Positions 5,147-63,184 are shown, counted from the stretch's first letter. The stretch is DNA of 64,000 nt from Candidatus Zixiibacteriota bacterium (GCA_026983835.1 JALSTH010000040.1:510-64509); one strand, 5' to 3'. The notes: a model not told the origin generated them from the sequence alone. Numbers and translations: made by a program.

Positions 5147-7873
5147 TTGTTTCCTGATTTTAGAATCCATTTCAATCTATCAATAAGGTTTAATCAAATG
5201 TTTAATCCCCCTCCAAATAGCGATTTTCCTTACCGAAGACTGTATTCCACTTTCATTGTAATTATCCTTTTTCTTATTTTAACGGTTATACAGGTTTATG
5301 CGGCGAAATATCCCCACATTCGCACAGCCGCCTTAACCTACTCGCTAACCGATTCTATCGGAGCCGACTTTGTCGGCAGGCATTACGACTTGGCGATTAA
5401 TCCGGGCGGCTCCAATTATGATATTATCAAAAGCGTCGATCCGCAAACCAGATGCCTTCGCTATTTAACTATCTCCACCTACCGAGACGACGATTATCAA
5501 CTTCTGTCGACATTTTGCAATGAGCGGGGATATAATTACGACTCTATGTTTTTATGGGTGGAAAATAATACCGTCTGTGTGGAGGCGGTAGCTCCAGCCG
5601 GAGAGCCCTGCGAAGGCGATGTTTCCTGTTCGGATCCTGGGCAGAAGCTCCAGTATTGCGGGTGGAATTCTTTCCGTACCGCTCCAGATTTCCGCAGGCA
5701 GGAAGTATGGGAATTTGTTATCTATAAATATCTGAATTTAATCGGTTCTCAATTTGATGGAGCTATGGAGGATGAGGCAGTTTTCTATTATCATCCTCAA
5801 TGGAATTATTACAGTACTATGATGGTTTATCCGCTCTCGCCCTCCAAATGGGTCAGCGGTTCGTCAGCTGATATAAACGGCTGGGAAGGATATTCCCAAG
5901 ATGCCATACGGGATAGCTTAATGCACCTAAAACAGCAAACCTGGCTTCCTATGCTGATGGACTCCCTTCGAGCGCATAACAAACTTCGATTTGCCAATCC
6001 TGCAGCTTACGGTGTTTTGGGATCGGATGTTATAGAAGATGTTGCTTTGACGGGGACAGGCGACCTTTTGGGCGAAGGGATGCATCTCCGTCCATTGGGA
6101 GGCTATTGGAATAATCAGGCGTGGGATATAATGGAATACATAAGGAATACAGATGGTTATGCCATTGTTTGGACGGAGATCACTTCCGCAGATTCGGAAG
6201 CTTTAGGGAGTTGGGCGAGATGTCAGATGGAGCGGCTGGCATGGTATTATATGGTCGGCGATACTACTCACTTCTATTTCCTTTTGACCGGAAACGAACT
6301 TTGGCTCAGACCCAATGATTACCGCGCTCCCGATAGTTTGTATAAATGGGCGCCGGCTTTTGAATATGATATCGGACAGCCTGTTGGCTCTAAATATATT
6401 GCTCAAACGGGGACGGACCCCTCAGGGCAGTCTTACGAGATTTACGCCCGGGTTTTCACCAACGGTCTTGTTCTCCATAGGGATGCAATGGGATCCGATT
6501 ACAGCGCCAATTCCGCCGTCTCCTGTAATTTAGGAGACCAATTCTATGAACTCCAAGCCGATGGCAGTTTGGGAGACATCGTAACCGTCTCGGTAATCAA
6601 AAACTGCGAAGGGAAAATATACATTCCGGTCAGCGGAAACTCCAACCACCCCCCTTCGGCTCCTGATCCGCTGCACCCCCAATATGGCGAGAATATCGAG
6701 GATACTCACCCGATACTGATAGTAGATAATAGTAGTGATGAGGATGGGGATGAATTGACATATAACTTTTATGTAGCATTGGACAGCGAATTCAATCAAA
6801 TAGTAGATTCCGAACAGGATATCCAGCAAGGTGACGACAGTACTTCCTGCCCTGTGCAGGTTGACCTTTCCTATGGAACCGATTATTATTGGCGCAGTTG
6901 TGCATTCGATGGTATCGACTATGGTGACTATTCACAAACGAGCTATTTTCATATTATTCAACCCAACACACCACCGCCGCCCCCCTTACCCTATATTCCA
7001 ATTGACGGTTCCACAGTCGATGTTACTAAGCCGACACTAAAGGGAATCTGCTCTCGGGACCCCGATGGCGATATTCTTTTTTACTTTTTCGAGATCTCAG
7101 CGGATAGTCAATTCACTGGTGAAGTGCTAAATGGGGATAGTATCAAAGCCGTCAATGGGCTGGTAGGATGGAATATTCCTATCGAGTTAAACAGAAATAC
7201 AACTTATTTTTGGCGGTGCAGGGCTTTTGACGGTACCGATTTCGGCGATTTTTCAAGCACTTCTAAATTCAAGGTGAACGGCTATTACACCCAGCTTGAT
7301 AGTGTTCACCTCAACAGCGCAGGTTCCCTTTCCCCGAAAACGATCTCACCGTCGAATGGAGCGGTGATAAACAATAATGCCCCGACATTGAGGATAATCA
7401 ATATTCCCGAAGCTCGGCGATATTATTTTCGGGTTGCTTTGGATACCGCCTTTGAAAAGACAATTGCCCAATCCCCGGCAATTCCCTCCGGGGATGATAA
7501 AATCACTGAATGGCCTATCGATAGATCGCTTCCTTCCGGCAAATTATATTATTGGCAGGCTAAGGCGGAAGATGGAGAATGGTCGGGCGATGACTCCTTC
7601 TTTGTTTCGATAGGGATACATATTTTCCCAAATCCCTTCAGGTCGAGCAAGGGACATAGGACAGTAACTTTCCGTAATATACCAAAAAACAGTCATCTGA
7701 AAATAGCAACCATATCCGGTAAAACAGTACGTGAATTCGACCGTCTTCCGGAAGGCGATTTCGTTTGGGATTTACGAAACGCTTCGGGGGATGTTTTGGC
7801 TCCCGGTGTTTATTTGTATCTTGTCGATTATCCGGGCGGTTCCGCTAAAGGTAAGTTGGTGATAATACGCTGA
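5147..7873 (+). CDS. Large secreted protein with three ~100-aa Ig/Fn3-like repeats and a T9SS/FlgD-like C-terminal domain
   Basis: N-terminal hydrophobic anchor/signal (FIVIILFLILTVIQVYA). Three repeats share Y[YF]W[RQ]..A.DG.D[YF][GS]D[YF]S. C-terminus FPNPF...GKTV...GDFVWDLRNASGDVLAPGVYLYLV...GKLVIIR. Confidence 0.55.
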   Translation: MFPDFRIHFNLSIRFNQMFNPPPNSDFPYRRLYSTFIVIILFLILTVIQVYAAKYPHIRTAALTYSLTDSIGADFVGRHYDLAINPGGSNYDIIKSVDPQTRCLRYLTISTYRDDDYQLLSTFCNERGYNYDSMFLWVENNTVCVEAVAPAGEPCEGDVSCSDPGQKLQYCGWNSFRTAPDFRRQEVWEFVIYKYLNLIGSQFDGAMEDEAVFYYHPQWNYYSTMMVYPLSPSKWVSGSSADINGWEGYSQDAIRDSLMHLKQQTWLPMLMDSLRAHNKLRFANPAAYGVLGSDVIEDVALTGTGDLLGEGMHLRPLGGYWNNQAWDIMEYIRNTDGYAIVWTEITSADSEALGSWARCQMERLAWYYMVGDTTHFYFLLTGNELWLRPNDYRAPDSLYKWAPAFEYDIGQPVGSKYIAQTGTDPSGQSYEIYARVFTNGLVLHRDAMGSDYSANSAVSCNLGDQFYELQADGSLGDIVTVSVIKNCEGKIYIPVSGNSNHPPSAPDPLHPQYGENIEDTHPILIVDNSSDEDGDELTYNFYVALDSEFNQIVDSEQDIQQGDDSTSCPVQVDLSYGTDYYWRSCAFDGIDYGDYSQTSYFHIIQPNTPPPPPLPYIPIDGSTVDVTKPTLKGICSRDPDGDILFYFFEISADSQFTGEVLNGDSIKAVNGLVGWNIPIELNRNTTYFWRCRAFDGTDFGDFSSTSKFKVNGYYTQLDSVHLNSAGSLSPKTISPSNGAVINNNAPTLRIINIPEARRYYFRVALDTAFEKTIAQSPAIPSGDDKITEWPIDRSLPSGKLYYWQAKAEDGEWSGDDSFFVSIGIHIFPNPFRSSKGHRTVTFRNIPKNSHLKIATISGKTVREFDRLPEGDFVWDLRNASGDVLAPGVYLYLVDYPGGSAKGKLVIIR

Positions 7874-11734: not shown

Positions 11735-12271
11735 ATGAGTAAAAGGCTTGTAGTAGTAGCTATTTTTATTTTCGCCATTTTTATGGCTAACAACAGTTAC
11801 GCCGGTAAAAAAAAGGCGTTTGACTTCACATTAAACGATTTAAATAATAATCCAGTTAGTATGAAATCACTTTTAGGAAAGGGTCCTGTTTATATCGCCT
11901 TTTGGGCAACTTGGTGCAAACCTTGCAAAAATGAACTGGAGATTGTCAGCAAAATCTATGATGAATATAAAGATAGAGGGTTTCAACTTGTCGGTATTAA
12001 TGAAGATGCAGGCCATTCATTAGGAAAAGTAAAATCATTTGTTAAATCCCAAAAATGGAATTTCCCCATTTTATTGGACAAAAATGAAAAAGTAAAAAGG
12101 GATTACAAAGCTTTTGGATTACCATATTCGGTTATTTTGGATGCCGAAGGAAATATCATCCACACCGCTTACGGTTTCCGCCCGGGAGATGAGGTAAAAG
12201 TGAAGGAACTAATCGAATCCCATCTGTTAACGGATGAAGCAGATTCTACCGCAAAGAAAGCAACGGAATAA
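11735..12271 (+). CDS. TlpA/ResA-like periplasmic thiol:disulfide oxidoreductase (thioredoxin fold)
   Basis: Signal peptide, FWATWCKPCKNELE active-site C-x-x-C, overall TlpA-like redoxin layout. RBS GGAGGA upstream. Confidence 0.75.
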   Translation: MSKRLVVVAIFIFAIFMANNSYAGKKKAFDFTLNDLNNNPVSMKSLLGKGPVYIAFWATWCKPCKNELEIVSKIYDEYKDRGFQLVGINEDAGHSLGKVKSFVKSQKWNFPILLDKNEKVKRDYKAFGLPYSVILDAEGNIIHTAYGFRPGDEVKVKELIESHLLTDEADSTAKKATE

Positions 12272-12291: not shown

Positions 12292-13791
12292 GTGATTTAT
12301 ATGAATAGAGCTTTTTATTTTTTTATATTTTTACTTTTAACCTTGATAGTTATTCAAACAGTGCAGGCGGATGATGTTTCCATCCAAACCCAAAACAAGT
12401 TGGAATATTATTTAGACAGAAACCCGACCGATTCCGGGGTCCACAACGATAGTTTGCGCAATCGATTGACCGTTGATATGCTCTATGGTAATTTCTATGC
12501 CGGTATATGGTACGAAGCGTTCGAGCCAATTACGAGATTAACCACCGGAGACACATCTTATGAGGGAATTACCCAGAGGTATTTCGGCTGGACGGACGGC
12601 AATGCCGAGATAAGATTAGGGAACTATTATGCGAATTTCAATCGAGGCTTGATACTTCGGGCTTACGAAAATCAGGATGTCCAGATAGATAAGAACTTGG
12701 ATGGGGTGTGGGCGAGCTATCGGGGAAACAAATTCAACTTGGAGGCATTAAACGGGAAGATACTTCTTTCCGAGAACATTTTGCTTTCCCCTCTGATCCG
12801 CACGCGGGAAAATGACATTGTAGCTTTTCGAGGGGAATTGACACCTATCAGTAATATCTCCTTCGGCGGCGCCGCTTTGCGTTATAAAAAGAAAAACTCA
12901 TTTACCTCTGAGATAGAATATACCAATGCGCAGGAAATTACCGCCGGACTTACCTACGGTCCTTTTGATTTCTATGCCGATTATGGCCGTCAAGAAGGTA
13001 ATGAGGGGTTCTATATAGGGAGGCCTGATCTGAAAACAGGCGATGCGACCTATCTGACAGCTTCCTTCTCAACCGGACTTTTTGGCATCTCTGCGGAATA
13101 TAAGAATTATTATAATATGGCTTTGGATTTCAACGCCCCTCCTTCGGCGAACCATCGTGATCAATCGCCCAACGCTTTATGGGCGCAAAGTGGAGCTAAC
13201 GACAGGGGATTTCAGGTCTCGCTGTTTTTCGCTCCGCTTAATAATTGGACCGTTGAAGCCGATATCGCCCAGAGTGGTGAAAGACCCGATGAATACGGAC
13301 ATATCCAACAGAAAATATTCAACAACTTTTATGAGGTGCGGGGATATATCGGTAGGAATATTTTGATATTGAATTACGAACGCACCGATACCGGTGTCGA
13401 AGGATTGGAGCAATTGCCATACGGGGAGTTCACTTATTATCTCGATGATGACAACACTATCACACTGACCGGGCAGGTTAGAAAATTGGAACGCATTCGC
13501 GATTTGTTCGGTAAGGATGATTACAACGAAACCGACTACTCTATCTCATTTTCGCATTCGTATTTTCTTTCTATAACGGTTTACGGAGGCTTTACTTCGG
13601 AGGAGTTTCAACCTTGGGAACAATCCTTCCCCAAACGGAGCGGGGCGATATCATTGGGGCTTCGTTACGGGGAACATGATCTGAATATATTTTACGGGGA
13701 TCAGCGAGGCGGTTTCGTCTGCACCGAAGGCGCCTGTCGTGAAGTTCCACCATTTAGAGGTTTGAAAATAACTTTGGTATCGAGGTTTTAA
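12292..13791 (+). CDS. Outer-membrane protein (probable beta-barrel/porin-like), unknown family
   Basis: Cleavable signal (LLLTLIVIQTVQADD). G/Y/N/F-rich alternating strands. C-terminal ...TLVSRF ends in the aromatic residue typical of BAM substrates. Confidence 0.4.
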   Translation: MIYMNRAFYFFIFLLLTLIVIQTVQADDVSIQTQNKLEYYLDRNPTDSGVHNDSLRNRLTVDMLYGNFYAGIWYEAFEPITRLTTGDTSYEGITQRYFGWTDGNAEIRLGNYYANFNRGLILRAYENQDVQIDKNLDGVWASYRGNKFNLEALNGKILLSENILLSPLIRTRENDIVAFRGELTPISNISFGGAALRYKKKNSFTSEIEYTNAQEITAGLTYGPFDFYADYGRQEGNEGFYIGRPDLKTGDATYLTASFSTGLFGISAEYKNYYNMALDFNAPPSANHRDQSPNALWAQSGANDRGFQVSLFFAPLNNWTVEADIAQSGERPDEYGHIQQKIFNNFYEVRGYIGRNILILNYERTDTGVEGLEQLPYGEFTYYLDDDNTITLTGQVRKLERIRDLFGKDDYNETDYSISFSHSYFLSITVYGGFTSEEFQPWEQSFPKRSGAISLGLRYGEHDLNIFYGDQRGGFVCTEGACREVPPFRGLKITLVSRF

Positions 13792-13859: not shown

Positions 13860-14897
13860 ATGAAAAAACTGTTATTGGCAACGGTGGCGATTTTCTTGCT
13901 TTCTTACGGGAATTCCTTTGCCACTCTAAGAATGCCGCTCGGGGAAATGTTCACCAACACCGGCTGCGGACCTTGCTATAACGCCGAGATAGCTCTGGAC
14001 AACATAATGGAGGAGCATTGGGATGATTATTCCCTAATCCGCTATCATGTCAGTTGGCCCAGTTCCGGCGATCCGTTTTATACTTTCAACAGAGCGGAAA
14101 ATATGGACAGGAACGATTATTACAACAATGATTATACCCCTCATCTTTTCATTGATGGCATTGTTGACGGTGAATATTATTACAACAATTGGGACGATCA
14201 ATTTGCGTTGCGCTGGGACACCCCGAGTCCATTGGAAATCGAACTGATAGGTCATTATAATGGCGCTGACCGAGAGAATCAACTGCATATTTCGATGACC
14301 GCCACCGATAATATCAATTTCAATGATTTGCGGCTGTTCTGCGTTTTGATTGAGAATTACATCCAATATAACGCTCCCAACGGTGTGCGGCAACACGATC
14401 AAACTATGAGGGATATAGTCCCCGATTCCGATGGTGAATCATTTACCATAAGCAACGGTGAAACGAAGGAGTTCGATTTTACAATCGCTTTGGACCCGCA
14501 ATTGGCTGAGGATAACTGCGAGATAGTGGTCTTCGTTCAGGATTATTCCACGAAGGAAGTCCTTCAATCGGCAAAGATCGATGCTACCTCCGGCCAGACC
14601 GGAATTGATAACGATGGAAATGCTCTAACCCCAAAGACTACGATACTTTCCCAGAATTATCCCAATCCATTCAACGCCGAAACATCGATAGCTTTCAGTC
14701 TTGACAAAACCTCTTTCGTGAACCTCTCGGTTTACAACCTTAAAGGACAAAAGGTTGCGGAGTTGGCAAATGGTAATTACAAAGCCGGATTATATTCGGT
14801 CAGTTGGGATGCTTCCGAGCAAGCATCGGGAGTTTATTTCTACCGTTTAAGTGCCAACGGCGAGGTTAGAACCAGACGAATGGCTTTAATAAAATAG
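13860..14897 (+). CDS. Thioredoxin-fold T9SS cargo protein, Cys form (HBP35-like), paralog 1
   Basis: Signal peptide ending SFA. EMFTNTGCGPCY (CGPC thioredoxin motif), YTPHLFIDG cis-Pro-like region, C-terminal T9SS sorting domain NYPNPFNAETSIAF...GVYFYRLSANGEVRTRRMALIK. Confidence 0.7.
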   Translation: MKKLLLATVAIFLLSYGNSFATLRMPLGEMFTNTGCGPCYNAEIALDNIMEEHWDDYSLIRYHVSWPSSGDPFYTFNRAENMDRNDYYNNDYTPHLFIDGIVDGEYYYNNWDDQFALRWDTPSPLEIELIGHYNGADRENQLHISMTATDNINFNDLRLFCVLIENYIQYNAPNGVRQHDQTMRDIVPDSDGESFTISNGETKEFDFTIALDPQLAEDNCEIVVFVQDYSTKEVLQSAKIDATSGQTGIDNDGNALTPKTTILSQNYPNPFNAETSIAFSLDKTSFVNLSVYNLKGQKVAELANGNYKAGLYSVSWDASEQASGVYFYRLSANGEVRTRRMALIK

Positions 14898-14931: not shown

Positions 14932-14956
14932 GGGCATTGGGAAATTCCCGATGCCC
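14932..14956 (+). terminator. Hairpin GGGCAT-t-GGGAA-a-TTCCC-g-ATGCCC between paralog 1 and paralog 2; weak terminator/attenuator with no strong U-tract
   Basis: Read from sequence, 11 paired positions. Followed by ccgtcggattaagtttt. Confidence 0.25.
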
Positions 14957-14994
14957 CCGTCGGATTAAGTTTTAATCATTCAAGAGGAAAGATT

Positions 14995-16038
14995 ATGAGA
15001 AAGATATTCTCGGCGCTTGGTTTAGCGGTAATTATATTGCTAACGGCAGGAAGCTCCTTTGCATTAGATCGAGTTGTTATAGGAGAGCTTTTTACCAACA
15101 CTTCGTGACCGTATTGTAAAAATGCTGAATTGCAACTCGATCAGTTGACCGAGGAATACGCCGATACGATCGCCATAATACGCTACCATGTCAATTGGCC
15201 AAGTAGCGGCGATCCTTTTTACCTTTTCAATCCCGATGAAAGTATGAACAGGAACGGTTTCTATGGAAATAGCTATACCCCTCACCTTTTCATAGATGGT
15301 TCTGTGGATGCAGGCTCCAATTATTCCGGTTGGGGGACTATGTTTATGGACCGATATGCTATACCATCGGATTGGCAAATTAACGCTAACGGAACTTTTA
15401 ACCCCATAACGCGGGTAATACACCTTAATATAAGCATCGATCTGGACGGCGAAAATCCGGATGGCGTAGAATTTATAAGAACTGCTCTTACCGAGAGTGA
15501 TTTACATTTCAACGCGCCGAATGGTTTAACGGTATTTAATCAGGTTTTCAGGAATATGATGCCCATTATCTATGGTGTGACTGTCGAACCTGATAGCAAT
15601 GGTCATTTCGAAACTTCTTTCGATTTCACTGTGGATGAGGAAATTATTACCGAAAACTGCGAACTTGTGATGTTTATCCAATCAACGCGGGAACATAAAA
15701 TATATCAGGGGTATAAAATGCCGTTTACCGATTTAATAGAATCTTCGGTATCGGATGATAACGATAATATCCCTAATGAGTTCGCTCTCATCGGCAATTA
15801 TCCCAACCCTTTTAACTCCTCGACGGTAATCGAATTCAAAACCGAAAACCGCGGGAATGTGAAGTTAGGTGTTTATAATATAGCTGGGAAGAAGGTTGTC
15901 GATTTAATTGATGGCGGGTTGCCTGCGGGGTATCATTCTATCACATTTAATGCCGATGAGCTTCCCTCCGGCATCTATTTTTATCGACTGCGTTCCAATG
16001 ATAAAACAGCTGTCGGCAGAATGACTCTCGTTAAGTAA
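14995..16038 (+). CDS. Thioredoxin-fold T9SS cargo protein, predicted selenoprotein (in-frame TGA=Sec at 15106-15108), paralog 2. The six-frame ORF 15130-16038 is an N-terminally truncated call.
   Basis: GAGGAAA sits 5 nt before ATG 14995. The frame is open over 37 codons and encodes a signal peptide ending SFA, then ELFTNTS-TGA-PYCK. This aligns residue-for-residue with EMFTNTGCGPCY of paralog 1, with the TGA at the first Cys. Downstream region is collinear with paralog 1 (IRYHVNWPSSGDPFY, YTPHLFIDG) and ends in a T9SS CTD (NYPNPFNSSTVIEF...GIYFYRLRSNDKTAVGRMTLVK). Confidence 0.6.
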
Positions 16039-16060
16039 TATCGATAATATCCCTGATGTC

Positions 16061-16093
16061 AAGCGGCACGATTTTGCCGCTTGACTTTTTTTA
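16061..16093 (+). terminator. Rho-independent terminator after paralog 2 (AAGCGGC-acgatttt-GCCGCTT + TTTTTTATTT)
   Basis: 7-bp GC-rich stem at 16061-16067 / 16076-16082 followed by a T-tract. Confidence 0.6.
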
Positions 16094-16143
16094 TTTGGCG
16101 ATTTATTTTTTAATTGAATTGATCTTGTCAAGCAGGTAAAATA

Positions 16144-17175
16144 TTGAAAATAATAACAGGTTTATTTCTATCTTTGATGCTTTTGGTGGGGGGTGATTCG
16201 TTTGCGGCGACAAGGGTTGTCGTGGGGGAAATGTTCACCAACACATCGTGAGGGGCTTGTTCCTTAGCCGATATGACTCTCGATCAGTTGACCGAGCAAT
16301 ACAAAACTCAAATCGCCGTAATCCGATACCATATATGGTGGCCCTCATCGAAGGACCCCTATTATCAATACAACCCTGAGGAAGCAACCGCCAGAAATAA
16401 CTTTTATGCCAACCAATACGCCCCGCATCTTTTTATCGAGGGAAGCGATTATGGGTCGGAGTATGAGCAATGGGAAACAGCCTTCCTGCAGAGGATGGGC
16501 ATATCTTCCGATTGGTTTTTCAGCGTAGGGGGTGATTATAACCCCGACAACCGAAATCTTCATTTGGATATCGATATCTTCCTTGAAAATGAAAATCCCG
16601 AAGGGGTGGAGTTCTTACGAATTGCGTTGGTGGAGAATAATATATTCTGGCAGGCTCCCAATGGCGTGGATTGGCATAATCAGGTTTTTCGCGATATGAT
16701 ACCCGATCCGAACGGAGTAGAAATAACTCCCGATAATTCCGGTGTCTTCCAGACGGAAGTCGATTTCACCATAGGGGAAGAGATAGTCCTCGAAAACGCC
16801 GAGCTTGTATTATTTATCCAATCGACACGGGATAAGGAAATACTTCAGGGATACAAGGCTGCCCTTTCGGATTTCGAGATTAACTCGATTGATGATTCCC
16901 AAAATAAACCGATTAACAAGGCAGAGCTTTTTAATTACCCGAACCCTTTCAATTCCTCAACTGAAATTAAGTTCTTTCTCCCCCACAACGGACAAGTAAA
17001 GTTGGAAATCTATAACCTTATCGGGGAAAGGATAGCAACCCCGCTAAATGATAAACTATCCGCAGGGGAACATTCCGTCCTTTTTAGGGCGGATAACTAT
17101 TCTACCGGGGTGTATTTTTGTAAATTATCTTATGGAAAATTAAATCTGATCAGCAAGATGGTCTGTATTAAATAA
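16144..17175 (+). CDS. Thioredoxin-fold T9SS cargo protein, predicted selenoprotein (in-frame TGA=Sec at 16249-16251), paralog 3. The six-frame ORF 16273-17175 is an N-terminally truncated call.
   Basis: TTG 16144 is the first start after an in-frame stop at 16120-16122, with AGGT 6 nt upstream. It encodes LKIITGLFLSLMLLVGGDSFAA (signal peptide ending SFA), then GEMFTNTS-TGA-GACS. The rest is collinear with paralogs 1 and 2 and ends in a T9SS CTD (NYPNPFNSSTEIKF...GVYFCKL...KMVCIK). Alternative ATG at 16177. Confidence 0.55.
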
Positions 17176-32621: not shown

Positions 32622-35417
32622 TTGATGGGTTTTTGTGATTATATTATTGGAGGTAAAAGAATGAAAAAGTTATTTTTGTTCTCTCTTGTTTCGTTTATGG
32701 CGATCTACGGTATCGCTGCCGCTACCTTTGTCAGCGGCGATATTTCGGGAGGGTGGACTGCGGACAACAACCCATATCTTGTATTAGGGGATTTGCAGAT
32801 TCCTCAGGACTCAACACTGACCATTTATCCGGGAGTATCGATTTATTTTTTGGGGAATTATGAATTAAATGTGAATACTGCAGCTACTTTAGTAGCGCTG
32901 GGTAGCGAAAGCGATTCGATTACCTTCACTACTATCGACACTTCCGTAGTTTGGGGCGGCATAAAAATTCATTCGGCTGAAGCATATCTATCCTTTTGCC
33001 GCCTTAGAAACGGAAAAGCTACAGCATATAACCCCTATTCCGGTGGCGCTGTTTTTTGCGACCATTCTAATCTTCTCTTAACTAACTGCACAATCAACAA
33101 TCACATAGCGAGTTATAATGGCGGTGCAATATATTGCGTCTCCTCAAGTGTAGTAATAAGCAGTAGTATCATAAGCGGGAATTTGTCTTTTGCCGGCAGT
33201 GGTGGAGCAATTTGTTGTGATTCCTCAAGCATAGTCATATTTAATAATACTATCGACGAAAATTCTGCCGGTGAATATGGAGGGGGAATTTGCTGCGTGT
33301 ATTCTAGCGGAGAAATTAGCGAAAACAATATCATCAACAATACGGCCGATAACGCTGGCGGTGGAATTATTTGTTTTCATTCGGACCCGATCATAAGTAA
33401 TAATACCATCAATCATAATTCAGCCATTAATGGTGGTGGTATCAATTGCTGTGGCCATTCAGCCCCGACCGTGAGTGGAAACACTATCGGCAATAATTCA
33501 GCAGATAGCTCTGGTGCAGGAATTTACTGCAATTATTCGAGCCCGAGGATAAGCGATAATTTCATCGTGAACAATTCCATATCCGGTAACTATGGACTAT
33601 CTGGTAGTTATGGTGGCGGGATTTACTGCTATCATTCGAGCCCGAGAATAAACAATAATACTATTGCCAATAATTCTAATTCCGGTGATTATGGCGGAGG
33701 AATTTGTTGCGATTATTATTCTAATCCAAAGATATAATACAATACTATCAGGCATAATTCAGTCGCGAGTTACGGTGGTGGCATCTACTGTTATAGCTCC
33801 AACCCGGACATAAGCCAAAATACTATCGGTAACAATTCAGTCGGTATCGGTGGCTACGGTGGCGGTATTTACTGCTATGGCTCCAACCCGAACATAAGCC
33901 AAAATAATATTGATAACAATTCGGTCGGTATCGGTGGTTATGGTGGCGGTATCTACTGTTATGGCTCTAACCCGAGCATAAGCAAAAATAATATTGATAG
34001 CAATTCGGTCGGTATAAGTGGTTATGGAGGTGGTATCTATTGTAACTCTTCCAATCCGCCAATAAATGGAAACACTATTAAAAATAATGCTGCCGATTTA
34101 TCCGGTGGGGGGATTTACTGCAATTTCTCGAATGTTGAGATAAAGATGAACAAAATCAACAATAATTCCGCCGGGCTTTCCGGTGGGGGGATTTATTGCA
34201 ATTCTTCCCACCCGAGAATTGCCAAAAATACCATCGGCAGCAATTCAGCTTCTATTTCCGGTGGGGGGATTTTCTGCAAATCCTCCCAATCGACAATAAA
34301 TGGAAATGTTATCACCGGCAACAGAGCCGATTACTTCGGTGGCGGGCTTTATCTTATCTCTTCCAACCAAACGACAATGAGCAATAACACCATTAGCAAC
34401 AATACTGCCCATTTCTATGGTGGTGGACTTTACAGCTGTAATAATTCCGCTATAAAGGTTGTTAATACTATTTTGTGGGCTGACTCCTCCGCCCGCAACA
34501 GCGAAATCTATTTGGAAAACGATTCCATAGCTATATCTTTTTCCGATATACAGGGTGGATGGGAAGGTAGTTGGAATAATAATATGAACCCGTTATTTGT
34601 CGATCCTGAAAATGGGGATTATCATCTGCAGGAGGGTTCTCCCTGTATAGATGCCGGCGATCCGAACTCGCCCTTTGACCCGGATAGCACAATCTCCGAT
34701 ATGGGAGCGCTTTATTTCTATCAGGGTGGGGGGAATGGTATTTCTATCATAGCCGACCCCATCGATCCGCCGATTATCGTTTCCCAAGGCTCCAGTTTCA
34801 ATTATTACGGGTATCTCATTAACACGACAGATACGGATTTGACTACCGATGTTTGGTGCAGAACATTGATGCCTGATGGTTCTCTATCCGACACGATTCG
34901 CGTATGGAGCGAGGTGTCGGTGGCGGCTAATAGCACCATAGAGGATTTTATTGTTCAATATATTCCTACCTATGCCTCTCTGGGCGATTATTTATATATC
35001 ATTTATGACGGGGATTATCCGAATATTATGAATTCTGCTTATTTCCCCTTCACGGTTATTGCGGCTACCGAAGGATTAGCGGGGAGTGATCGTGGCTGGG
35101 AGGTAAGTGGGTGGGGAGGGAAAGCGGACGATATGGATGCTGTAAACATCCCTGCCAAATTAACCTTGAAGGACAACTATCCGAATCCGTTCAATGCGCA
35201 GACCACTATTACCTATCAACTGCCAAAAGCAGGCGATGTTTCCTTGGATATTTACAATCTAATGGGACAGAAGGTGGCTACGCTAGTCAACGGCAATGTT
35301 GAAGCTGGTTCACATACGGTTGTTTGGAATGCCGGCTATTATTCCAGTGGGATTTATTTCTATAAACTAACCGCCGGCAATAAAGTCTTCACCAAACGGA
35401 TGACACTGCTGAAATAG
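32622..35417 (+). pseudogene. Right-handed parallel beta-helix repeat T9SS cargo protein (adhesin-like), one continuous 932-codon frame interrupted by a single in-frame TAA at 33735-33737. The ORF calls 32622-33737 and 34146-35417 are its two pieces.
   Basis: Signal peptide. Dozens of ~22-aa N-x-[AS]-x-x-GGGI[YFI]C-x-x-S-x-P-x-I-x-x-N-x-I repeats continue in the same frame on both sides of the stop (…SNPKI*YNTIRHNSV…); I hand-translated 33738-34160 with no further stops. C-terminal T9SS CTD NYPNPFNAQTTITYQL...GIYFYKLTAGNKVFTKRMTLLK. Confidence 0.55.
33740..34060 (+). repeat. Near-identical 66-nt (22-codon) tandem DNA repeats inside the beta-helix gene
   Basis: Three to four consecutive units such as ggtatcggtgg(c/t)ta(c/t)ggtggcggtat(t/c)tactg(c/t)tatggctc(c/t)aacccg(a)a(c)cataagc(c)aaaataatattgata(a/g)caattcggtc, encoding YGGGIYCYGSNP.IS.NNID.NSVGIGG. 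Confidence 0.6.
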
Positions 35418-58946: not shown

Positions 58947-60947
58947 CTATTTCACCAGCGTCATCTTCTTAATCGATGTCTTGCCTAAATTGGTGAGTTT
59001 TGCGTAATATATTCCGCTCGGCATATCCGCGGCATTCCATCTTATACTGTGCGTTCCCGCCGACAAATAACCATCAACCAGCTTCGCCACCTCCCGCCCG
59101 GCGATATTATAAACCGTCAAGTCAACCTCTCCCCCATAAACCAAAGAAAAGTTGATATTGGTCGCCGCATTGAAAGGATTCGGATAATTGCCGTGCAAAG
59201 CAAACTCGACAGGATGCGAAGCGTTGGAATTATCATCGGGGAGCTTGATATCGTGATTCTCGTTCCATTTATCGAGACCGACCACATCCCAATCGGCGGA
59301 GTTTCCACCCGCACCTTCAATTACCGTGAACGGAAACGATGCCGAGCTGATTACGCTGTCGGGATAATCCCCACAATAAGCGATATAATTATAGTCGCCC
59401 AACGGTGCATAACCCGGAATATGTTGGGTCATAGCAGCTGTCAAGGTATCGTGAGGGAGCATAATTATATGATCCATTTCCTGAATCGGACCATAAATTC
59501 CATAATCGGGGACATCGAGCATAATCCACACATCGGTAACCTGAACATCAGCCGTGTTGTTGATAAGCACGCCTGTGTATTGGAAACTACCGCCCGGCGT
59601 GACTACAACGGGGTCTTCGGCAGGTATCATATCGATGTAGATATCCGGCATAGAACCGCCCGATATGGCGAACATCTTGCCACCGCTGGAGAGATATTGA
59701 GTGCCGGCGATAATATCACAGTTCCCATCGCCATCCAGATCGCCCGCCGCCCGAACCGTTTTCAGACGGTTTCCGGTATTGTACTGCCACAATATCGAGC
59801 CATCGGAACCATCGCAGAGATAAACATTATAATCGAAACTCCCACCGACAACCTCATCGATACCATCCTGCGTGACATCGGGAACATTATCGATAGTCCA
59901 GACATCACCGCCGTTTAAATCCCCCACAGTTGTGCTCCAATTGACCGCTCCGGTGGCGCCATCAAGGGAGATGATACGATTATCCCAACTGGCAACCAAC
60001 GCCTCCGGAATACCATCGCCGTTCTGATCGCCGCCGACTTTAACCTCCATCACGCTTGTGCCGATATTCGATTGCCAAATAAGGTCTCCATTTGCCGCCG
60101 ATAAGCAGTAAACATTTTCGGACCACGAACCGGCTAAAACATCCTGCAATCCATCGCCGTCCACATCGACGAAACCTTCGACATCCCAAACTGATTGGCC
60201 TGTATGGTATTCCCAAATCAAAGTACCGGTAGCACCATCAACGCAAATTACTCTATCTTCATACGGATCGCCGGCGCCGATAATTGCCTCCGGGGCATCA
60301 TCGTAGTTGATCGAGCCTATGGAAGAAACGGCGAAAACCGCATCATTTGCTTGGAATTTCCAAATCAGCGAACCGTCAACGCCTGACAGGGCTACCGCAG
60401 CATCTTGATAGGAACCAAAGCCAGCCAAGACATCAGGGATGCCATCGAAATTCAAATCGCCGGTCATATGTATTGAATAGCACCAACCACTGGGTTCGTG
60501 GACATAAGTATCGTAAACCCATTCGGTAGAGCCATCGGCGCCATTGATAAGGAAAGCACTTCTGCCACCCCAAGCGGTGCCTAATAAAACCTCATCGATT
60601 CCATCGCCATCATCGTCGGTATAGCGGGAAAGGCAGTCATCACCATAACCTCCCCCGGATGATACGCCACCTTGGGGTCCGGCAGACCAAAGGACGACAG
60701 GACTGCCGTTATTTCCGGGACCTGACAAACAAAACAGGTTATGATCGCCTTGATAAGCTGAATTACCCCAGATGCCGACTACATCGGGATGGGAATCGCC
60801 ATCGACATCGGAGAATCCCATCACGCAGACACAATGATCATCCGGACCTTGATAGGACCAGATAAGGTCGCCCGCTTGGTAAGCAAACGAGCTACCCGCA
60901 AAGAGCATTACCCCAAGGAGAACAACGCCAGTTAACATTTTTCGCAT
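58947..60947 (-). CDS. FG-GAP/beta-propeller repeat T9SS cargo protein
   Basis: Signal peptide. Repeated ...DVDGDG..D...G....-type FG-GAP/VCBS-like units. T9SS CTD GNYPNPFNAATNINFSL...GIYYAKLTNLGKTSIKKMTLVK. Confidence 0.65.
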   Translation of the reverse strand: MRKMLTGVVLLGVMLFAGSSFAYQAGDLIWSYQGPDDHCVCVMGFSDVDGDSHPDVVGIWGNSAYQGDHNLFCLSGPGNNGSPVVLWSAGPQGGVSSGGGYGDDCLSRYTDDDGDGIDEVLLGTAWGGRSAFLINGADGSTEWVYDTYVHEPSGWCYSIHMTGDLNFDGIPDVLAGFGSYQDAAVALSGVDGSLIWKFQANDAVFAVSSIGSINYDDAPEAIIGAGDPYEDRVICVDGATGTLIWEYHTGQSVWDVEGFVDVDGDGLQDVLAGSWSENVYCLSAANGDLIWQSNIGTSVMEVKVGGDQNGDGIPEALVASWDNRIISLDGATGAVNWSTTVGDLNGGDVWTIDNVPDVTQDGIDEVVGGSFDYNVYLCDGSDGSILWQYNTGNRLKTVRAAGDLDGDGNCDIIAGTQYLSSGGKMFAISGGSMPDIYIDMIPAEDPVVVTPGGSFQYTGVLINNTADVQVTDVWIMLDVPDYGIYGPIQEMDHIIMLPHDTLTAAMTQHIPGYAPLGDYNYIAYCGDYPDSVISSASFPFTVIEGAGGNSADWDVVGLDKWNENHDIKLPDDNSNASHPVEFALHGNYPNPFNAATNINFSLVYGGEVDLTVYNIAGREVAKLVDGYLSAGTHSIRWNAADMPSGIYYAKLTNLGKTSIKKMTLVK

Positions 60948-61570: not shown

Positions 61571-63184
61571 ATGAAAAATTCTATCTGGAAAAAGGAGATT
61601 GTATTTTTAATCTTTTTGCTTATATTAATTTATGGGGTGGTGAATGCTACGCCCCTGATAGGGAGCTGCTATAAATCGGAATTTAGTCGGGATCATATAA
61701 TAAATACAGGCTATATTAATTTGACAGGGATAACTGATTTGAGATTCGGTATGCGATGGGGTGATATTGACGAGATAATCAATTCCGATTCTTTGGGTTA
61801 TTATCCGCCGAAGGATGTTTTTCAACCGCTGTTGGATTCTATCAATAAGTATGTCCCTTCGGATGTGGAATGCATATTTCAGTTGAAATTTTGGAACGCT
61901 TACAAGATGGCGGATCCGGATTCCACCGGGACTGCTTGGTGCAAGAAGGATGTTTACAAGGTGCATCCTGATTATGTTGAGGACTTCAAGGATATGTGTT
62001 ATGGTTTGGGAGTGGCATTAGGAGGGAGGGTAAATTATTTTGTTCTCCACAATCAGCCGAATGCTGGTTGGAATGAGGATGGGGGTGGGGTGTTTTGGCG
62101 TAATTCGCCGGAGGATTTTGCGTGGCAGTGCAAGATATGTGCGGAGCAGATAAAAGAAGGGAACCCCGATGCCTATGTGATATATGGTGGTTTCGGGGGG
62201 ACAAAGGTTGATAGCGGATTTATCCCTCGGGCGGTTAATGCTATAATGACTTACCAGACACCAAAGATCGATGCTGTGGATTTCCATTGGTACGATATTT
62301 TGCATTCGGCGGATACGATGAGATATATAGCTGAAAAGCTACACAATTTTACCGATTCCTATGACCTCGATTGGACAGTCCTTGAAACCAACGGTCCAAG
62401 AATCGTCTTCCCGTTGGATAGCATTCCCCAAGGCTGGGGTGAAAGCATAATCGATTCGCTCAACGATATAAGTCAAGGGCATGAAGAGCATATACTCGAT
62501 CATCTAAGGGATTGTTTATATGCTGGTACGCGTATCGTAGATCCCGCCAATTTGGGATTGCCGGAGAATTATAATATAGTTCAGCCTATAAAGGTTGATG
62601 AGTTTAACGGACGCGTTCCGATATTTATTGCTAATGGAGCGAAGATAGTTAATTGGTTCTCAGCTTACACCGCATTTGATGAACAATGGTTGTCGAACCT
62701 CGATGAAATCCCCTGTACGGATAACGAAATTATGTCCCAAGGTCCCGAAGGGAAAGTGGAGATGGTAATAAAATCCTGTCAGAACTGGCCATTGAATGTG
62801 GCTAAGGTTGATTTTGGTGTGTTTGGGAGCACTGATCTATCCGATAGGATGAAGGAATACATTGATTCATTAAATCTGCCGAAAATATCGCCGCCGGGGC
62901 AAAAGCAGATGGATATTAATTTAAGAGGGATTACATTATGTAGTTATCCTAACGCGTTTAATTCTTCTACTAAAATCTCTTATTATCTTCCTGAGGATAT
63001 GGAAGTAAAATTAGAGATGTTTGATATTCTTGCCAGAAAAGTCGACATACTCGATACAGGAATTAAGGGTAAGGGGCAACATACCGTCATTTGGGATGCA
63101 GGTAAATATGCCGGAGGCGTTTATTTTTGTAGGTTATCTACCAGCTTATGTTCAAAGGTAATTAAAATGACTTTGCTCAAGTGA
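61571..63184 (+). CDS. Secreted T9SS cargo protein with a putative glycoside-hydrolase-like (TIM-barrel) N-terminal domain
   Basis: Signal peptide. ...VLHNQPNAGWNEDGG... and ...WTVLETNGP... are candidate catalytic Glu regions; this assignment is weak. T9SS CTD SYPNAFNSSTKISYYL...GVYFCRLST...KMTLLK. Confidence 0.45.
   Translation: MKNSIWKKEIVFLIFLLILIYGVVNATPLIGSCYKSEFSRDHIINTGYINLTGITDLRFGMRWGDIDEIINSDSLGYYPPKDVFQPLLDSINKYVPSDVECIFQLKFWNAYKMADPDSTGTAWCKKDVYKVHPDYVEDFKDMCYGLGVALGGRVNYFVLHNQPNAGWNEDGGGVFWRNSPEDFAWQCKICAEQIKEGNPDAYVIYGGFGGTKVDSGFIPRAVNAIMTYQTPKIDAVDFHWYDILHSADTMRYIAEKLHNFTDSYDLDWTVLETNGPRIVFPLDSIPQGWGESIIDSLNDISQGHEEHILDHLRDCLYAGTRIVDPANLGLPENYNIVQPIKVDEFNGRVPIFIANGAKIVNWFSAYTAFDEQWLSNLDEIPCTDNEIMSQGPEGKVEMVIKSCQNWPLNVAKVDFGVFGSTDLSDRMKEYIDSLNLPKISPPGQKQMDINLRGITLCSYPNAFNSSTKISYYLPEDMEVKLEMFDILARKVDILDTGIKGKGQHTVIWDAGKYAGGVYFCRLSTSLCSKVIKMTLLK

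Follow-up and report, generated by a model that had tools for sequence, protein, structure and literature searches.

GOS_C is a protein family with a thioredoxin (Trx)-like fold that was predicted to contain selenocysteine (Sec) from 74 TGA reads and 312 cysteine (Cys) homologues (Zhang & Gladyshev 2008, PMC2398784), and the 2026 catalogue of prokaryotic selenoproteins lists it as NF045500, 'hypothetical protein GOS_C', with the motif UxxC (PMC13188914). The same catalogue contains other UxxC selenoproteins with a Trx fold (Sec-Trx, DsbA-like, thiol:disulfide interchange protein and redoxin family), many of which are extracytoplasmic (PMC13188914). The gene described here lies in a stretch of 64,000 nucleotides from Candidatus Zixiibacteriota bacterium (GCA_026983835.1, JALSTH010000040.1:510-64509), which we refer to as the window, and is the third of three tandem paralogs, P1, P2 and P3. 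P3 is very probably one gene for a 343-residue exported selenoprotein, in which the UGA at 16249-16251 is recoded as Sec. Like the other UxxC proteins with a Trx fold, it would carry Sec at the N-terminal position of a CxxC motif, in place of the attacking Cys, but those proteins belong to different sequence families, and neither the Omp28-like domain nor the type IX secretion system (T9SS) tail of P3 is present in them. The proposal is built on what could be shown of the gene anatomy, the Sec/Cys column, the conservation of the reading frame, the conservation and covariation of a hairpin, the fold and the synteny.

GOS_C/NF045500 and P3 share the Sec column, an Omp28-like domain that follows it, and the occurrence of both Sec and Cys forms. 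The GOS_C protein from JCVI_READ_1092961114687 (Dataset S2, PMC2398784) is 26% identical to P3 over 202 residues (BLASTP E = 2e-10), the hhalign probability of GOS_C against the profile of the window family is 98.4%, and the U columns of the two proteins coincide (RVVMVEDFTGLN-U-PYC in GOS_C versus RVVVGEMFTNTS-U-GAC in P3). With NCBIfam NF045500, named 'Omp28-related selenoprotein', P3 scores 47.2, P2 45.3 and P1 59.2 bits at a cut-off of 200 bits, and these scores place all three outside this equivalog model. There are further differences from GOS_C. The window proteins have a type A sorting domain of the T9SS, for which NF045500 gave no alignment; they come from sediment and groundwater metagenome-assembled genomes (MAGs) of the Zixibacteria type, whereas GOS_C is from ocean surface water; and they are found in tandem arrays of Sec and Cys forms, preceded by a redoxin gene and a DUF6029 gene. 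The alignments indicate that the window gene belongs to a known superfamily of predicted selenoproteins, in which it forms a divergent branch with a T9SS tail and the same Sec site. In a second homology search, several relatives bore the NCBI name 'Omp28-related outer membrane protein [Zixiibacteriota]' and none was named 'selenoprotein'. Literature searches that paired Zixibacteria/Zixiibacteriota with selenocysteine, selenoprotein or selenium found no report of Sec decoding or of an exported, Sec-containing T9SS cargo, and a search for 'Omp28' together with selenoprotein found nothing relevant.

The gene and its parts are as follows.

16144..17175, plus strand: P3 read-through coding sequence, 343 codons, TTG start, Sec at codon 36, TAA stop at 17173-17175
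16134..16146, plus strand: weak Shine-Dalgarno-like AGGT (16134-16137), 6-nt spacer and TTG start (16144-16146), read from the sequence
16144..16206, plus strand: predicted signal peptide of the Sec export pathway, (M)KIITGLFLSLMLLVGGDSFA, from the P3 translation; putative cleavage after SFA
16249..16260, plus strand: redox motif U-G-A-C, with TGA 16249-16251 as predicted Sec codon and TGT 16258-16260 as resolving Cys
16279..16296, plus strand: hairpin CUCGAUC-AGUU-GACCGAG resembling a selenocysteine insertion sequence (SECIS), type B, encoding LDQLTE; loop at 16286-16289
16207..16878, plus strand: Trx-like N-terminal half and Omp28-like domain, about residues 22-245 (Pfam, PDB profile matches and the P1 model)
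16936..17163, plus strand: T9SS type A C-terminal sorting domain, residues 265-340 (PF18962, TIGR04183)

An in-frame TGA stop at 16120-16122 precedes the frame of P3, and the TTG at 16144 is the first start codon after it. The initial annotation had placed the start here, with AGGT 6 nt upstream, and these coordinates were verified. The translation reads LKIITGLFLSLMLLVGGDSFAATRVVVGEMFTNTS, then the TGA, then GACSLADMTLDQL and so on, with 35 codons before the TGA at 16249-16251 and a frame that stays open on to 17175. The SFA motif is common to P1, P2 and P3, and the translations of the three paralogs agree with the shared signal peptide that had been proposed. The stored database model of P3 (P0001; NCBI, JGI and ENA gene callers) covers 16273-17175, giving 300 aa from ATG 16273, and the signal peptide is present solely in the read-through model. 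P3 is mis-annotated: the public record shortens the gene at its N-terminus. The same holds for P2 and dozens of homologues, stored as truncated proteins of about 290-307 aa, without signal peptide or active site; in this size class, every entry whose DNA was checked has an upstream TGA. NF045500 does not reach these entries, and a subfamily model would fix their annotation. The predicted tryptic peptide that would span the Sec site of P3 is VVVGEMFTNTS-U-GACSLADMTLDQLTEQYK.

Domain searches of P3 were run with U written as C. The C-terminal end scores 36.6 bits against PF18962 (Por_Secre_tail; cut-off 27) and 34.9 bits against TIGR04183 (cut-off 23), so that P3 shows both marks of a T9SS type A cargo, a tail domain above threshold and a signal peptide. 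For PF11551 (Omp28), with a gathering threshold of 34.9 bits, P3 (33.0 bits) and P2 (33.6 bits) stay just under and P1 (70.8 bits) passes, and P3 matches DUF1223 (PF06764) weakly. When the family profile was compared with the PDB, 2axo (DUF1223) covered the N-terminal half and 2r2c (Omp28) the second half, and HBP35 (5y1a) and many thioredoxins matched at the CxxC segment. In the AlphaFold model of P1 (mean predicted local distance difference test score, pLDDT, 82.5), C36-x-x-C39 lies between a strand (27-33) and a helix (39-52), which in this model is the canonical site of the Trx fold, where strand beta-1 is followed by the N-terminus of helix alpha-1. The fold was carried over from the P1 model to P3 by alignment (36% identity, same numbering). 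The top Foldseek match of the P1 model in the PDB is HBP35 of Porphyromonas gingivalis (5y1a; E = 5.7e-15, TM-score about 0.6).

HBP35, the 35-kDa hemin-binding protein, is the best whole-protein structural match. As named by the depositors, it is a T9SS cargo, and it has an N-terminal Trx-like CxxC domain; thioredoxin activity and hemin binding have been reported for it. It uses Cys where P3 has Sec, and the sequence identity is 14%. The N-terminal half of the P3 family resembles DUF1223 (PF06764; PDB 2axo, Atu2684), a Trx-like fold with CxxC, and the second half resembles Omp28 (PF11551; PDB 2r2c). Unlike P3, Omp28 is a lipoprotein and has no T9SS tail, and the cut-off of NF033782 was not reached.

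For evidence of recoding, homologues were compared at the position of the TGA. A first homology search returned two size classes, proteins of 345-351 aa that carry FTNTSCGPC and proteins of about 295 aa that start just past this motif. The DNA of several short homologues and of 63 metagenome loci, found with a domain-only profile, was taken and scanned in frame, which gave 71 homologous genes from metagenomes and MAGs, mostly labelled Zixibacteria. A contig search keyed on the generic T9SS motif NYPNPFN yielded family members in 3 of the 80 returned loci. In the motif column of the 71 genes, TGA occurs 51 times, TGC 10 times and TGT 10 times, and TAA or TAG not at all. The 51 TGA genes are spread over 44 contigs, and all 51 have an upstream open frame that encodes a hydrophobic signal peptide and an R.V..E.FTNTS strand, a run of at least 36 codons wherever the contig extends that far. 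Past the TGA, all 42 genes with a complete 3' end keep 244-592 open codons, mostly 306-319, and the Cys forms mostly have 307-327 open codons past the same column. The flanks are conserved on both sides of the column (R.V..E.FTNTS before it and ..C..A...LDQL after it), and the 12 codons before the TGA of P3 fit the family consensus R.V..E.FTNTS. The family thus shows what generally identifies a selenoprotein gene, an in-frame UGA aligned with the Cys of homologues and conserved flanks.

The same arrangement is present within the window. The two other paralogs are:

14995..16038, plus strand: P2, with the architecture of P3; TGA 15106-15108 (U-P-Y-C), hairpin 15136-15153
13860..14897, plus strand: P1, the Cys form, with C-G-P-C and TGC 13965-13967; no conserved hairpin

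The translation of P2 reads ...SSFALDRVVIGELFTNTS, the TGA and PYCKNAE, and that of P1 reads ...NSFATLRMPLGEMFTNTGCGPCYNAE. Aligning the paralogs puts the TGA of both P2 and P3 in the column of the first Cys of CxxC, and a window-wide scan for other TGA read-through candidates found none beyond these two. The start context of P2 is better than that of P3, with an ATG and a GAGGAAAG-type ribosome-binding site (RBS).

Because synonymous sites are saturated between P2 and P3, no formal ratio of nonsynonymous to synonymous substitution rates (dN/dS) was derived, and the proportions of nonsynonymous (pN) and synonymous (pS) differences were compared instead. These are pN 0.11 and pS 0.86 for the 12 codons before the TGA, pN 0.27 and pS 0.94 for the 24 codons before it, and pN 0.36 and pS 0.74 for the first 59 codons after it. 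At the protein level, the segment upstream of the TGA is under no less constraint than the one downstream. The initial annotation had proposed this comparison, and the result (pN 0.11-0.27 versus saturated pS 0.86-0.94) corresponds to purifying selection. It had also placed the TGA at 16249-16251 in the Cys/Sec column, giving U-G-A-C, with which both the paralog alignment and the column counts in the 71 genes agree. Its view that such a pattern would be very unlikely to arise by chance is borne out by the 51 TGA against 20 Cys codons and by the upstream frames that have been kept, and its argument against two truncated pseudogenes is strengthened by frames that are intact on both sides of the TGA and by covarying hairpins.

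The closed 3.83-Mb Zixibacteria genome CP070813.1 contains the redoxin, the DUF6029 gene and four tandem paralogs, three of which have the TGA and all four of which are annotated as truncated. This locus is:

CP070813.1, 788301-801179 (L151): paralog genes at 6001, 7213, 8480 and 9848; motif TGA at L151 positions 5950, 7174 and 8411; all three have a type A hairpin

Since three tandem TGA copies occur in a closed genome, the pattern is no assembly error, and across the homologues it is neither an assembly artefact nor random decay. The orthologous third genes of two closely related arrays differ at the motif codon, one being TGC with C-P-Y-C (L135:2459) and the other TGA with U-P-S-C (L115:2459). 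The Cys form of this pair still carries a type B hairpin, so that it looks like a recent switch between Sec and Cys.

The hairpins that follow the TGA fall into two types. Type A (GCUGAUCU-GGUCUU-AGAUCAGC) extends from +19 to +40 and encodes ADLVLDQL (31 distinct sequences aligned), and type B (CUCGACC-AGUU-GGUCGAG) extends from +31 to +48 and encodes LDQL(V/T)E (14 sequences aligned, including P2 and P3). Both resemble bacterial SECIS elements in lying in the coding region just past the UGA and in having a G and then a U or G among the first loop bases, and the distance from the UGA to the loop is 23 nt in type A and 34 nt in type B. They depart from such elements in that one protein family has two hairpin registers, 12 nt apart, a situation that is documented here. 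We take the type A loop, GGUCU(U), to be reminiscent of the apical loop of E. coli fdhF. The best local hairpin after the motif codon has a median of -10.1 kcal/mol in Sec genes versus -7.0 kcal/mol in Cys genes (Mann-Whitney p = 1.4e-4). In codons 6-12, the entropy at the third codon position is 0-0.7 bits in type A Sec genes versus 1.0-2.0 bits in Cys genes, although the type A set was partly defined by GGTC in codons 8-9, and the entropy at these two codons is not independent. Covariation is present in both types: 94.9% of the cells are paired in type B, with compensatory changes in 3 of the 7 pairs, and 95.6% in type A, with compensatory changes in 3 of the 8 pairs, whereas slid controls are 12-42% paired. 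RNAalifold recovers both hairpins without prior input, and these data support the view that types A and B are selected RNA structures. Type A is a clean example of a SECIS element that constrains protein sequence, in that the hairpin fixes the peptide ADLVLDQL; GCUGAUCUGGUCUUAGAUCAGC is near-invariant in nucleotides, and the peptide is fixed in Sec forms only (for example L082:3959-4018, L114 and L151). In type B genes, RNAalifold also reports a second small hairpin nearer to the UGA, of 4 pairs with the loop GC[C/U]GA (alignment A3 columns 15-27; 16263-16275 in P3), for which up to 5 of the 14 sequences are broken per pair and which is weak in the window genes.

The hairpin of P3 was compared with the consensus of the bacterial SECIS (bSECIS) model, which specifies 16-37 nt between UGA and loop, an upper stem of 4-16 bp and a minimum free energy of at most -7.5 kcal/mol (PMC13188914). 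In P3 the spacing is 34 nt (16252-16285), and the 7 stacked positions of the stem consist of 2 pairs, an A.C mismatch and 4 pairs. The loop AGUU, in which G is second and is followed by U, agrees with the model in its size and its G-U. Relative to the type B consensus there is one compensatory change, C-G to U-A, and the next pair is the A.C mismatch. Relatives that have the same hairpin without the mismatch reach about -13 kcal/mol (L112, three flanking pairs). The 18 nt of the hairpin are identical in P2, P3, L081 and L087, four genes that have otherwise diverged by about 50%; among P2, P3 and L081 no exact nucleotide match is longer than this 18-mer. In these three genes, the codon is shared in 27 of the 129 columns with identical residues, while the six hairpin codons are all identical; at about 0.21 per column, six identical codons running have a probability of about 1e-4 for a position specified in advance. 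An identical 18-mer in synonymously saturated genes argues for continuing selection on the RNA. Two alternative structures were rejected, a type A-like fold of P3 (GCUGA...UCAGU with a 12-nt loop), which is weaker and not conserved in P3, and a lower stem CGUAU/AUACG, which is present in P2 and some type B genes and not shared by P3.

Several observations weigh against a recoded P3. The hairpins of P3 and P2 are the weakest of 46, and at -4.0 kcal/mol that of P3 falls short of the -7.5 kcal/mol of the bSECIS model. Its shuffle z-score is unremarkable (+0.28 for a 60-nt region of -10.3 kcal/mol, which includes an unrelated helix), the spacing of 34 nt is close to the upper limit of 37 nt, and the start is a TTG behind a weak AGGT. 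In addition, tRNA-Sec, selA, selB and selD were not found in the 64-kb window or the fetched DNA. ARAGORN and Rfam gave no such match in the window, ARAGORN gave none in the loci on which it was run, Pfam revealed no Sec machinery among 30 window ORFs (open reading frames), and tblastn with approximate E. coli SelD and SelB queries gave no match in the fetched DNA. Because of the weak hairpin and because the Sec machinery is not in the available sequence, we rate the case for P3 below that for the family as a whole. The family could be a true selenoprotein family while P3, perhaps with the clade of P2, P3, L081 and L087, is a decaying copy whose SECIS has degraded and which is read through poorly or not at all. 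The hairpin, the weakest of the set with its A.C mismatch, the TTG start with its weak RBS, and a 1-nt frameshift a few codons past the hairpin in L087, the closest relative, would all fit such decay. This is nevertheless unlikely in view of the 18-nt identity in four genes that are about 50% diverged and synonymously saturated, the compensatory change of C-G to U-A in the pair beside the mismatch, and the 307 codons past the TGA and T9SS tail that are intact; the frameshift in L087 is located in an A-run and could reflect a sequencing error. L087 itself (L087:2300-2520; 56% identity to P3 in the matched domain) has the TGA, the motif U-G-P-C and the same 18-mer, and one A is gone from the A-run, which shifts the frame and marks either a sequencing error or a pseudogene.

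The absence of Sec machinery from the available sequence would also agree with read-through that needs no selenium, in which a near-cognate or suppressor tRNA places Trp, Cys or Gly at the UGA, or TGA has been reassigned. We consider this very unlikely. TGA terminates 10 of the 49 window ORFs, among them polA, whose Pfam match runs to its end, and 7 of the 42 Sec genes themselves; this stop-codon usage rules out genome-wide reassignment, and since TGA is an ordinary stop elsewhere, the recoding is local to the motif codon. Moreover, the column alternates with Cys only and does so in a CxxC redox motif, the covarying hairpin, whose loop has the G-U and is spaced from the codon as in a SECIS, accompanies only the TGA forms, and the homologous GOS_C is a catalogued selenoprotein family. 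It is extremely unlikely that the database model is right and that P3 is a 300-aa protein, with the 35-codon ORF upstream being unrelated or encoding a separate small peptide. An ATG does exist at 16273, and the gene callers of NCBI, JGI and ENA all give this model. Yet its product would have no signal peptide, and its fold would be missing the first beta-strand and the redox motif, while it would still end in a T9SS sorting domain, which serves no purpose unless the protein is exported through the Sec translocon. In 51 genes the protein sequence of the upstream frame is conserved, and many homologues lack a Met at the position of ATG 16273, their genes having been called from various starts further downstream.

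If P3 is the selenoprotein that we propose, translation would start at TTG 16144, and SelB with Sec-tRNA(Sec), bound to the in-frame hairpin at 16279-16296, would insert Sec at UGA 16249, after which the ribosome would proceed to the TAA at 17173-17175. The preprotein would then pass the inner membrane through the Sec translocon and be carried over the outer membrane by the T9SS, by means of its C-terminal domain. At or beyond the cell surface, U-G-A-C would form a selenol/thiol redox pair with Sec as the attacking nucleophile. P3 is on these grounds a putative cell-surface or secreted thiol/selenol-disulfide oxidoreductase, and its probable partners are the periplasmic TlpA-like redoxin and the DUF6029 protein, both co-conserved with it. 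The data suggest that organisms of the Zixibacteria type have Sec decoding and use the residue in T9SS cargo for export. The general understanding of Sec recoding is unchanged by this, and the main value of the finding lies in the corrected annotation and in the documentation of Sec in an exported T9SS cargo of Zixibacteria-type bacteria.

The neighbourhood of P3 contains the following features.

11735..12271, plus strand: TlpA/ResA-like redoxin with WATWCKPC, which opens the conserved neighbourhood (Pfam AhpC-TSA/Redoxin; NCBIfam ResA-like)
12292..13791, plus strand: DUF6029 protein, 499 aa, C-terminus ...VSRF (Pfam PF19494); adjoins the paralog array upstream
14948-14963: weaker terminator-like site after P1
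16058..16085, plus strand: strong intrinsic-terminator-like hairpin between P2 and P3, 11 pairs followed by TTTTTTTATT (T-run)
16081..16109, plus strand: promoter-like TTGACT-17-TATTTT upstream of P3; a consensus match only, which may not be the promoter type of the phylum

The gene order redoxin, DUF6029 and 1-4 Omp28-like Sec/Cys paralogs occurs in at least 16 loci and in CP070813.1 (the loci with this order include L001-L003, L082, L083, L086, L090, L096, L104, L116, L125, L128, L133, L141, L149 and L151, the last being the CP070813.1 locus), and in some loci the redoxin is directly upstream of the paralogs, without a DUF6029 gene. The DUF6029 proteins are about 500 aa long, and their ...SRF ending resembles that of an outer-membrane barrel. 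The terminator-like hairpin at 16058-16085 suggests that P3 is on its own transcript, and P1, P2 and P3 may be separate transcription units. The tandem array, in which P1 is a Cys form and P2 and P3 are Sec forms and each has its own terminator, might constitute a selenium-responsive set of isoenzymes with a Cys backup, the SECIS of the Sec copies being weak and distant by design (A.C mismatch, 34-nt spacing), as part of an undescribed redox module that reaches from periplasm to surface, includes the redoxin and DUF6029 and is delivered by the T9SS. We regard this as possible but doubtful; if it is true, P2 and P3 would be produced only with an ample supply of selenium and SelB, and P1 would serve as the selenium-independent backup.

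Elsewhere in the window, three long ORFs have no Pfam match at E <= 1e-4, namely 5147-7873 (908 aa), 32622-33737 (371 aa) and 61571-63184 (537 aa). Two more window proteins have T9SS C-terminal sorting domains, at 34146-35417 (plus strand) and 58947-60947 (minus strand), one of them NosD-like and one of the FG-GAP/beta-propeller type, and the organism evidently relies on type IX secretion.

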